The translations under genes and the position numbers were made by a program. Shown piece by piece: positions 44,983-47,092 of a stretch of DNA of 64,000 bases. The stretch is from UHGV virus genome UHGV-0171787; one strand, 5' to 3'. The notes under the pieces were generated by a model that was not told the origin of the DNA, made no database searches, and saw only the letters and a list, made by a program, of their open reading frames with translations. How positions within the stretch are numbered: the stretch's first letter is position 1; every line of letters starts with the position of its first letter. The DNA is from a virus.

Positions 44983-47013
44983 TTAACCTCTATTCAATGA
45001 ACATTTAGGAGAATTACAATAAACTTGATTCATAGAACCAAGCGTACAACTTTCAGCATCGCGCCACGGAATCTGCTTAAAACACTCTGAGCAGTATCCG
45101 AGGGTTGACCACATTGCTTTGGTGAAGTCAGTGCTTCGGTTTCCGTCGAAGCTGACAACAGTTTTGCGGAGAGCTGTTCGTAATTCAGGAAACACACCTG
45201 CTTTCTCAGCAGGTTCCTCCTTTTTTGGCTTAGTTGAGATTGCAAAAACACTGTTGCTACGTTTCTCAACATAAGCATCAACAACATCCTCCAGAGTGAT
45301 GCCTGTCTGTTTCGCTGAGGAAGGTAATACAGTCATACGACCGATCATATCTTCAGTTACACGTAAAGCAAATTCAGGACGACGGGAGTTTGTTGTATCT
45401 GTTGCTTTAATCCAGACATAACCATCTTTGATCGTAGCATTAGATACTTTCTTCTTTACTTCTACAGCGCAGACTTTACAGATATCTTCACCACGAAGAC
45501 GGCTGAGTTCTTCATCGAACTCATTCTCTGTTTTAACTTCACCACAGATTTCACAAACACCAATAGGAGTCTCCTCCTCTTCTTCCTCTTTAGGTTTAGT
45601 CAAACCTTCCAGACATTCAGGATGCCAGTAGCACTGATATGCGAAGACTGCTTTAGGTGCATCCTTCCAATCAATGTGTTTGTCACAACCGCCACAATCA
45701 CCATGAGAATGTGCTTCCCAGAATTTACGAGTGATAGTAACGCCATTCTTGTTAACGAAACTATCATTCATATCAAAAGGGATATCATCATCGAAGTCAG
45801 CAGTAGTTGACTCAGGCTCCTTTTTCTCCAGAGATGGGTCAACAAAACGACCTGCTGTGATCACTAAACGAACCATAGCATTAACTTCGGAGATGCAGGA
45901 TACTGTCCCACGGTAAACAATTTTAGGATCTTTCAGTGCGTCCTGATAAGCCTTAATGTCTACGTTATGAACATCACCTTCGATATACTCTTGAGACTTC
46001 TCATCGTAGATATAACCGATCATCTTACCACGAGAAGGAACAGCACCAGAAGTTGCATAAGGAACAAACTCATGCGGAGTGATCTCTACAGTCATATCGC
46101 GACGGATATCAATGTTTCGATCGCTTGCGATTTTGTTTTGACTTACTACTGCGTTTCTTCGACGAACATCTGCCGCTGTCACTCCCGGCTTCGTGTCGTA
46201 AGGATTGCTTGTACTGCTTTTTGAGGAGCTTTGATAGCTGCTTTGGCTGTAGTTGTTCGAGTAGTAACTGGCCCAACGATTGACTACCGTAAAAACCGGA
46301 AGCTCATGGGCGACCTCTTCAACCAATGTCATGCTATTGTTTGACATGTCAAAGATATACTCTGTACCAACCTTACATTCAAAATGCTCATCAATACGGT
46401 TCTTGTGAGACTTTGAACGCTTCAGAATCCACATCAGCATATCTTCTTCAGAAGCACCAAACCAATCTTTATTACAACGTGCGAGATGGAAAGGACGTTC
46501 TTCGTTACGGATGATATGAAGACGGTTATCAGAAGCATCATGCCAGATTAAGGTGAAAGCACCATCCAGCTTTTGAATAGTCTCTGCTGCACCAATAGTG
46601 TTAATAGAGTGGCAGATGTTCTCACTGTCTACCTCGAAGTTTTTACTGTCAGGTAACAGGTCTTGGTCTATCAAGGTTCCGTTATGAACCAGAGTGATGT
46701 TACCGTGTTGGAAAGGATGGGCGTTCTTGGCGTTAACTGCACCTTTCGTTGCATGACGGCTGTGACCAACAATCCATGAAGGTGCTACAGTGTAAGATGT
46801 TTCACCAGTGGTATGCTTCTTATACTCATCTTGTAGGATGAATGCGAAAGAAGGAAGAGCTTCTTTATAAGTGAAGACTTCCTTAGTACTTTTACGCTGA
46901 CCAAAGATACCAGAGGAATGTTGTCCTCGGAATACTCCAGCATAAAAGAGTTGGTTGAATACGTCTAAATCGGTGCTTGACAGATTGCCGCCAGCTAATA
47001 CGATGCCACAAAT
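44983..47013 (-). CDS. class-II (Ntn-type) glutamine amidotransferase domain protein with Cys-rich C-terminal region; non-AUG start
   Basis: The ORF-track entry 44983..46674 starts at an internal TTG. The frame stays open upstream to codons ATT-TGT (47013-47008), giving N-terminal CGIVLAGG...RG.HSSGI...NAHPF.HGNITLVHNGT. No in-frame ATG/GTG/TTG lies between the TAG at 47017-47019 and the Cys codon. Confidence 0.6.
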   Translation of the reverse strand: MCGIVLAGGNLSSTDLDVFNQLFYAGVFRGQHSSGIFGQRKSTKEVFTYKEALPSFAFILQDEYKKHTTGETSYTVAPSWIVGHSRHATKGAVNAKNAHPFQHGNITLVHNGTLIDQDLLPDSKNFEVDSENICHSINTIGAAETIQKLDGAFTLIWHDASDNRLHIIRNEERPFHLARCNKDWFGASEEDMLMWILKRSKSHKNRIDEHFECKVGTEYIFDMSNNSMTLVEEVAHELPVFTVVNRWASYYSNNYSQSSYQSSSKSSTSNPYDTKPGVTAADVRRRNAVVSQNKIASDRNIDIRRDMTVEITPHEFVPYATSGAVPSRGKMIGYIYDEKSQEYIEGDVHNVDIKAYQDALKDPKIVYRGTVSCISEVNAMVRLVITAGRFVDPSLEKKEPESTTADFDDDIPFDMNDSFVNKNGVTITRKFWEAHSHGDCGGCDKHIDWKDAPKAVFAYQCYWHPECLEGLTKPKEEEEEETPIGVCEICGEVKTENEFDEELSRLRGEDICKVCAVEVKKKVSNATIKDGYVWIKATDTTNSRRPEFALRVTEDMIGRMTVLPSSAKQTGITLEDVVDAYVEKRSNSVFAISTKPKKEEPAEKAGVFPELRTALRKTVVSFDGNRSTDFTKAMWSTLGYCSECFKQIPWRDAESCTLGSMNQVYCNSPKCSLNRG

Positions 47014-47092
47014 TTTCTAATCCACCTGAAGGGTAAACCCTTTCATCTAATTAACCTTTAAATTGTGCCCCTTTACCAGAGGCACCCATTGA

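Follow-up and report, generated by a model that had tools for sequence, protein, structure and literature searches.

The DNA analysed here, a stretch of 64,000 nucleotides (nt) of the virus genome UHGV-0171787 that we refer to in its entirety as the window, derives from a phiEco32-like podophage (Kuravirus, Gordonclarkvirinae), a coliphage with 94–96% identity to many database records. The minus strand of the window carries the orthologue of phi32_83, a glutamine-amidotransferase gene in which the codon for the catalytic cysteine (Cys1) is preceded by no canonical start, and our subject is the manner in which the translation of that gene is initiated. The gene forms part of an early cluster with the conserved order COOH-NH2 ligase, hypothetical gene, amidoligase, amidotransferase, two small genes, and ATP-grasp gene; the amidoligase gene upstream (the phi32_84 orthologue; 47093..48196, minus strand) ends 79 nt before the ATT considered below and is read in another frame. 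On the reading that we favor, the full coding sequence (CDS) of the amidotransferase runs from that ATT to the stop codon at 44985–44983 (44983..47013, minus strand; 676 codons), the extent also annotated in phiEco32, Bas90, SU10, and LAMP, and the mature protein, counted from Cys1, would have 675 amino acids and a mass of 76.0 kDa.

The sequence leading into the amidotransferase domain reads, on the minus strand, ATG (47046–47044) AAA GGG TTT ACC CTT CAG GTG GAT TAG (47019–47017) AAA (47016–47014) ATT (47013–47011) TGT (47010–47008) GGC ATC GTA, which translates as MKGFTLQVD, a stop, and then KICGIV, the frame thereafter remaining open to 44983. The first-pass annotation of this DNA had pointed out the lack of a canonical start, the position of the Cys after an in-frame TAG, and a 9-codon mini-open reading frame (mini-ORF) that begins with the ATG at 47046 and ends at that TAG; all of these observations were borne out, the order TAG-AAA-ATT-TGT placing the ATT in direct contact with the Cys codon. 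The Shine–Dalgarno (SD)-like AGGTGGA that had also been reported is indeed there (47027–47021), its distance from the ATT being 7 nt rather than the approximately 8 nt originally given; for the SD element as we delimit it (GGTGGA; 47021..47026, minus strand) the spacing is 8 nt, measured between the final G of GGTGG and the first base of the ATT. A sequencing error, which had been left as a possibility, is ruled out: because 97 independent GenBank phage records carry the 48-nt segment at 47005–47052 with 100% identity, the non-canonical start is not an error of that kind. The ATT-TGY junctions always create, in addition, an overlapping out-of-frame TTG (47009–47011 in the window, minus strand), which candidate we discarded as a start, since it would give a 39-codon peptide without Cys1.

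By its sequence the phi32_83-type gene product is a class-II, or N-terminal-nucleophile (Ntn), glutamine amidotransferase, the enzyme activity being predicted. The Pfam models GATase_6 and GATase_7 were matched with 54.6 bits (cut-off 27) and 27.9 bits (cut-off 25), respectively, while a profile of 27 family members aligned M-C-G-I-V with residue 1 of the PurF structures 8w7d and 1ecb—in agreement with the earlier contention that the domain has to begin with Cys—and matched the GHxRxxTxG and HNG motifs of GlmS and PurF; a single-sequence search against the PDB sequences gave no match, the similarity being seen with the profile search only. In the family alignment A2 the residues C1, R28, G29, G82, H83, R85, A87, T88, G90, H109, N110, G111, D128, and S129 are invariant, C1 (TGT; 47008..47010, minus strand) being the N-terminal nucleophile. 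The likeness to the E. coli PurF and GlmS resides in the N-terminal MCGIV, the R-G pair, GHxRxxTxG, and the HNG oxyanion motif, but is distant, with E values of about 1e-7 to 1e-8 in the profile search. Those enzymes gain their exposed Cys1 when the initiator Met is cleaved off, as seen in the PDB chain 1ecb, which begins at Cys; their start codon is ATG, whereas the phage gene would start with ATT.

The Ntn amidotransferases need a Cys1 with a free amino group; and because that residue must directly follow the initiator, the family would serve as a natural indicator of which codon truly starts translation. We located the Cys codon in each of the loci obtained from IMG/VR, the JGI metagenomes, the GTDB genomes, the Logan contigs, and GenBank, which collection comprised 105 family representatives after de-duplication at 90%. 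The codon immediately preceding that of Cys was ATG in 73 of the 105, ATT in 20, TTG in 8, ATC in 2, and GTG in 1, with the ATG standing one codon further upstream (ATG-TGC-TGT) in the one left; the preceding codon was thus start-capable in 105/105 representatives, and no other codon was seen. About a fifth of the de-duplicated lineages (approximately 21%) accordingly use ATT or ATC, and on a rough neighbor-joining tree the loci with ATT fall at no fewer than 10 distinct positions. Among the annotated bacterial starts, ATG accounts for 81.8%, GTG for 13.8%, and TTG for 4.35%, and E. coli has two confirmed AUU starts, those of infC and pcnB (bioRxiv 10.1101/063800). At the position of the window's ATT (47011..47013, minus strand) the Salmonella phage 7-11 has a canonical start, reading AAGAGGAAACTTTCCC-ATG-TGT-GGA-ATC-GTA, and the locus L015, within a leader shared with the window, has TTG-TGT. 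Distant relatives with an ATT start carry GGAGGA where the window has GGTGGA, and three of these loci (L122, L159, and L179) read GGAGGATTATAAA-ATT-TGT, nearly like the GGTGGATTAGAAA-ATT-TGT of the window; in the relatives L082 and L178 a TAA lies directly 5' of the ATT.

These comparative data lend strong support to the rare AUU initiation that the first-pass annotation had listed among its options. Translation most probably starts de novo at the AUU at 47013–47011, directly before the Cys codon, because a TAG two codons before that of Cys leaves no other in-frame start possible and because ATG (in phage 7-11) and TTG (in L015) occupy the orthologous position. To that start site, which comes from the comparison of sequences, we add, from what holds in general for bacterial initiation and for the Ntn amidotransferases, the steps that would lead to an active enzyme: the 30S subunit would bind the SD GGUGGA some 8 nt upstream, across an A-rich spacer; formylmethionyl (fMet)-tRNA would pair with the AUU; and peptide deformylase and methionine aminopeptidase would then remove the fMet—Cys being a permitted second residue—to leave Cys1 with a free amino group. 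The weakness of the AUU would be offset by a strong SD together with a small hairpin just 5' of it, for which arrangement we would expect on the same grounds, as the net outcome, probably a low or regulated expression and possibly a sensitivity to initiation factor 3 (IF3). The mini-ORF and its TAG would then be by-products of a conserved leader RNA, constituting neither a leader peptide nor a propeptide. Were this start to be the true one, the N-terminal tryptic peptide would be CGIVLAGGNLSSTDLDVFNQLFYAGVFR and the protein mass near 76.0 kDa.

The surroundings of the ATT in the family as a whole are consistent with such an offset. In a comparison of 16 ATT/ATC loci with 74 ATG loci, in which the shared-leader clade was counted once and shared ancestry was corrected for in part only, at least 4 of the 5 bases of GGAGG were present in 100% of the former versus 58% of the latter, and a perfect GGAGG in 44% versus 5% (p=9e-6, Mann–Whitney U test on the number of matches); the 37 nt 5' of the SD had a minimum free energy of -5 kcal/mol or lower in 75% versus 22% (p=2e-5, the shuffle z-scores being also significant); and an upstream gene ended within 10 nt in 2/15 versus 44/68 (Fisher p=4e-4). 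The SD-to-start spacing at the ATT/ATC loci has a median of 8 nt. The stems of the hairpins vary among the ATT lineages—AAGGG/CCCTT, AACCT/AGGTT, AATGC/GCATT, AGAGT/ACTCT, GAAGG/CCTTC, and CCGTA/TACGG—whereas their position before the SD is kept. In reporter work, hairpins flanking the initiation region raise expression, and AUU is 6–8-fold weaker than AUG (PMC3592434); another reporter study placed AUU at 0.1–3% of AUG. The covariation of the ATT with SD, hairpin, and spacing, which we derive from the aligned loci, fits a weak start codon situated inside an otherwise optimised, free-standing initiation region.

In the window the predicted hairpin is UGAA(A)GGG-UUUA-CCCUUCA, immediately 5' of the SD (47027..47045, minus strand), and its lower stem includes the U and the G of the mini-ORF ATG. 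Compensatory changes occur in two related loci, a G-C pair becoming A-U in L017 and the loop-closing U-A becoming C-G in L014; in the former the synonymous change ACC to ACT is coupled to GGG to GAG, so that the base pair is kept. Two pairs changed on both sides were, however, also reached by 24/500 shuffles, so that the covariation count by itself provides a modest support. Hairpin, SD, and start codon lie within an ultraconserved 45-nt leader (47013..47057, minus strand), in which no position varies (100% invariance) among Kuravirus, Nieuwekanaalvirus, and Suseptimavirus, against 13–87% invariance in 30-nt windows of the flanks. The Aeromonas phage BUCT695 (Grimontviridae), whose DNA cannot otherwise be aligned with that of the window, has the same leader with 2 changes. 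When IMG/VR was scanned for exact matches to the hairpin pattern, only 5 Kuravirus-like contigs were retrieved, and the window holds one copy; for these reasons we rejected the notion of a dispersed repeat. A permissive-threshold Rfam search of 46700–47300 gave chance-level matches only. A scan for sigma-70 promoters and terminators yielded none on the minus strand near the leader, and the published promoter/terminator table of SU10 has no entry near this gene; we accordingly dropped the idea that the AUG of the mini-ORF might head a leaderless transcript.

The alternative that survives best concerns that mini-ORF (47017..47046, minus strand), whose TAG falls within the SD-to-start spacer: the 9 codons would be translated from the ATG at 47046, and ribosomes terminating at the UAG (47019–47017) would restart 3 nt further on, at the AUU, as the main or obligatory route. 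The geometry is suggestive, in that UAG-AAA-AUU has the same spacing as the infC junction, UAA-GGU-AUU, and at thrS–infC roughly as much of the initiation arises by re-initiation as de novo (PMC3592434). Moreover, the SD sits inside the 3' end of the mini-ORF, the ATG is conserved in five leader-bearing lineages, and in Kuravirus a weak AAGG precedes that ATG by 8 nt. The last of these features nevertheless becomes AATG in the other lineages, so that the SD of the ATG is not conserved, and the predicted stem sequesters two bases of the AUG, the U and the G, in base pairs. Three loci (L014, L015, and L017) have TAT, for Tyr, instead of TAG—the codon before Cys being ATT in L014 and L017, and TTG in L015—and in those loci no termination would take place at this point; L178 has CTG instead of the ATG as well as a different stem, but has kept the hairpin, SD, TAG, and ATT. 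Other ATT lineages possess no such mini-ORF, and the ATT loci overall are less tightly coupled to upstream ORFs than are the ATG loci. The coupled re-initiation listed by the first-pass annotation, which the relatives would not need, is therefore weakly supported, and as the principal route we regard it as unlikely.

Nor does the peptide itself appear to be conserved. Across the five lineages the mini-ORF has undergone 7 nonsynonymous changes versus 1 synonymous, and since the sole synonymous one restores a hairpin pair, RNA rather than peptide would seem to be under selection; from this pattern of substitution we judge the region to be a structured 5' leader, with no sign of peptide-level selection on the mini-ORF, which does not behave as a conserved coding unit. 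The same pattern bears upon a second alternative, namely that the TAG is read through, or recoded as Tyr or Gln, from the ATG at 47046 and that a 12-residue propeptide is then autocatalytically removed as in the B. subtilis PurF. Propeptides do exist in some Ntn amidotransferases, that PurF having one before its catalytic Cys, and three relatives (P0019, P0020, and P0042), the DNA of which is that of L014, L015, and L017, were called with a continuous N-terminus of the MKGFTLQVDYKI-C type, a 12-residue extension in which a Tyr codon, TAT, replaces the TAG; extensions of the form ..FHEE-C are likewise found in distant bacterial PurF-like matches. In these last (L161–L196) the in-frame residues ..FHE(E/D)-C are genuine propeptides, unlike what is found in the phage family. 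The phage extension resembles that of the B. subtilis type in being short, in preceding the Cys, and in having been called—or miscalled—at 12 residues in the three relatives, but differs in being interrupted by a stop and in evolving as an RNA hairpin instead of as a peptide. Furthermore, TAG is followed by TAA in L178; TAG is an ordinary stop that ends 8/63 large ORFs in the window; the ATG lacks a conserved SD; and most family members have no propeptide whatsoever. A search for tRNA genes, suppressors included, found none in the 64-kb window, which therefore encodes no suppressor-tRNA gene; approximately 13 kb of the phage genome lie outside the window. On the strength of the alternation between TAG and TAT, the TAG TAA of L178, the 7:1 ratio, the ordinary use of TAG, and the tRNA search of the window, the stop read-through with processing that had been put forward in the first-pass annotation can be set aside as highly improbable.

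A third alternative would dispense with the N-terminus altogether, the gene being decayed or truncated and the product starting at the TTG at 46674 or at another internal codon, with the C-terminal part alone functional. The ORF finders do favor this solution: the mechanical ORF list gives that TTG (46672..46674, minus strand) as the sole start, with a product of 563 amino acids and 63.8 kDa from which the first 112 residues—and with them Cys1 and the catalytic motifs—have been lost. Most of the GenBank records also call truncated versions, the starts there being inconsistent: the ATT; an internal ATG after an annotated ribosome-binding site (SU7); other internal codons (SGF2 and KBNP1711); or a TTG (WFI101126), under product names ranging from purF to GlmS-like aminotransferase. 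Among the 57 family records listed, 9 annotate the ATT start, 45 have no CDS reaching it, the gene being either truncated or missed altogether, and 3 are unannotated; among the 120 homologues listed, 16 are called truncated and in 8 the Cys is preceded by a short extension whose last residue is I or L. Both of these anomalies are the behavior to be expected of a gene caller at an ATT or a similar non-canonical start, and as an independent check they agree with the start that we favor. In the proteomics of SU10, finally, 9 peptides placed the protein among the early products, and its listed mass of 63.8 kDa equals that of the truncated database entry.

Against such a decay stand the codons between Cys and the TTG themselves. 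In the 112 codons concerned, the window differs from KBNP1711 by 42 synonymous and 22 nonsynonymous codon changes, and from SU7 by 38 and 25, respectively, without indels in either comparison, so that by their pattern of change these codons are clearly coding and under purifying selection across three genera. Those same codons, which precede the TTG, carry every invariant catalytic residue of the family (C1, R28-G29, G82-H83-x-R85-x-A87-T88-x-G90, and H109-N110-G111), and the leader with its ATT is identical in the 97 records. Because this upstream stretch is selected and holds every catalytic motif, a product starting at the TTG is not credible; the internal start that the first-pass annotation had entertained was thus judged false, and the decay of the gene appears to us most improbable. 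Inspection by eye also led us to reject frameshifting and a bypass like that of T4 gene 60, because no matching codons for take-off and landing are present and because the mini-ORF already shares the frame of the gene.

Returning to de novo initiation at the AUU, we note several points that weigh against it or that it accommodates imperfectly. The assignment of the start comes from sequence comparison, and the mass of 63.8 kDa recorded for SU10, being that of the entry starting at the TTG, is uninformative with respect to the N-terminus. The SD is imperfect in the window phage (GGUGGA) and weaker still in the Aeromonas phage BUCT695 (GGCGGA), and the comparisons between groups of loci carry the partial correction for ancestry already mentioned. 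The distance of 3 nt between stop and AUU is that of infC, where about half of the initiation occurs by re-initiation, so that a contribution of the mini-ORF is possible. Finally, the absence of any substitution over 45 nt in approximately 100 genomes of three genera is a stricter conservation than a start codon, an SD, and a hairpin of 7 bp would be expected to impose, and the near-identical leader of the Aeromonas phage makes it more puzzling still. For this invariance a sequence-specific factor is one possibility, and the identity of the leader across genera could reflect a horizontal spread or a homing-endonuclease history, to which the HNH/HTH remnants described below would point.

Taken as a single case, the start of this gene is best explained by a rare but known mechanism, an AUU start that had already been annotated. 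The phiEco32 record of 2008 (ABY52884.1; RefSeq YP_001671828.1) has the CDS begin at this ATT, as do those of SU10 (SU10_085), LAMP (gp83), and the BASEL phages Bas88-94; all of these, together with phi32_83, represent the same gene, at approximately 95–98% identity and with an identical leader, and the records give no evidence or comment on the choice of start. We found no paper discussing this start codon in a search that did not reach the primary phiEco32 papers; likewise, those papers excepted, the searchable literature yielded no description of the family-wide recurrence of ATT, of its association with hairpin, SD, and uncoupling, or of the invariant 45-nt leader. The E. coli infC and pcnB share with the phage gene an AUU that is the only possible start and an SD in front of it, and infC in addition the stop 3 nt upstream (UAA-GGU-AUU versus UAG-AAA-AUU). 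In E. coli the weak start limits or regulates expression, whereas for the phage gene a regulation is only proposed, the known autoregulation by IF3 being that of infC; the ORF upstream of infC is a real gene, thrS, whereas that of the phage is a 9-codon mini-ORF, probably untranslated; and the E. coli AUU starts are single cases, whereas in the phage family the AUU recurs in approximately 20% of the lineages. The Enterococcus faecalis ebpA offers a further parallel, in that its expression is attenuated by a rare ATT start and its annotation had been truncated to a downstream ATG (PMC4447247); the ebpA start was verified experimentally, whereas that of the phage comes from sequence, and both the protein family and the organism are different.

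Certain observations on the leader and its neighborhood should be recorded. Within the 79-nt spacer after the amidoligase gene a second, G+C-rich hairpin is predicted (GUGCCUCUGGUAAAGGGGCAC; 47065..47085, minus strand), without a U tract, whose arms vary yet still pair in KBNP1711 and SU7; the terminator scan did not call it. A motif TTTAAATGT(T/A) recurs approximately 20–45 nt upstream of the start in the loci L007, L008, L014, L015, L017, L022, L023, and L026, which belong to phages of the Grimontviridae type or related to them. The motif is similar to the core tAATGTAtA of the promoters of the phiEco32 gp36 sigma factor; Kuravirus has TTTAAAGGTT in its place (47051–47060 in the window), and the gp36 promoters mapped in phiEco32 do not include one for gene 83. 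Unannotated remnants of HNH-like (CWLWTGCINSDGYP) and helix-turn-helix (HTH; ..VGCSQTHVSKLELGKY..) ORFs lie directly upstream in BUCT695 (L007, approximately 2806–3005), in L178 (100–222), and in L179 (480–596); the HTH ORF of L178 continues across the hairpin to end at the TAG of the leader, and that of L179 stops 1 nt before the ATT. The locus L178 (NZ_JANLCJ010000514.1) is a 624-bp scaffold from a Herbiconiux daphne assembly, with a phage-type amidotransferase N-terminus 59% identical to that of the window protein and a hairpin-SD-TAG-ATT leader like the one in the window; the scaffold is probably a phage contamination of the actinobacterial assembly. In the metagenomic phage locus L017 (12545–13824) a neighboring gene for the large subunit of ribonucleotide reductase contains an intein and LAGLIDADG domains.

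The other end of the protein also deserves mention. The C-terminal approximately 400 residues (about 270–675; 44986–46200, minus strand) have no Pfam match and contain several zinc-ribbon-like CxxC...CxxC pairs (HGDCGGCDKHIDW..CYWHPEC, CEICGE..CKVCA, and CSECFKQIPW..CNSPKC). This Cys-rich region, of unassigned function, stands where the class-II amidotransferases, PurF and GlmS among them, usually carry the acceptor domain.

Beyond the single gene, we tentatively propose that hairpin, strong SD, and AUU together may constitute a selected, recurrent, and polyphyletic expression-control module of the phage Ntn-amidotransferase genes, in which the AUU/AUC starts would always be accompanied by compensating signals and the leader would be the operator of a sequence-specific factor; we regard this proposal as possible rather than probable. 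Were it correct, AUU or AUC, used in approximately 21% of the lineages, would be more than 100-fold, and by a wide margin, as frequent as among annotated bacterial genes, in which non-canonical starts can make up a few tenths of a percent at most; the family would provide the largest natural set of AUU-initiated genes, and the synthesis of the enzyme may depend on how much IF3 is available or on the state of translation in the infected cell. The practical consequence concerns annotation, since the metagenome gene callers also truncate the gene, as in P0001 (a cluster of 211 member sequences); such calls remove the Cys and the active-site motifs, so that function prediction and structure modelling of the early-gene cluster begin from the wrong protein. 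Confirmed AUU starts are extremely rare, and in this family the position of the start is fixed by the chemistry of Cys1. The phage amidotransferases thus offer a clean natural data set on how a weak start is tolerated and compensated for—by the SD, by a 5' hairpin, and by uncoupling from the upstream gene—and perhaps on how such a start is put to use for regulation during infection.

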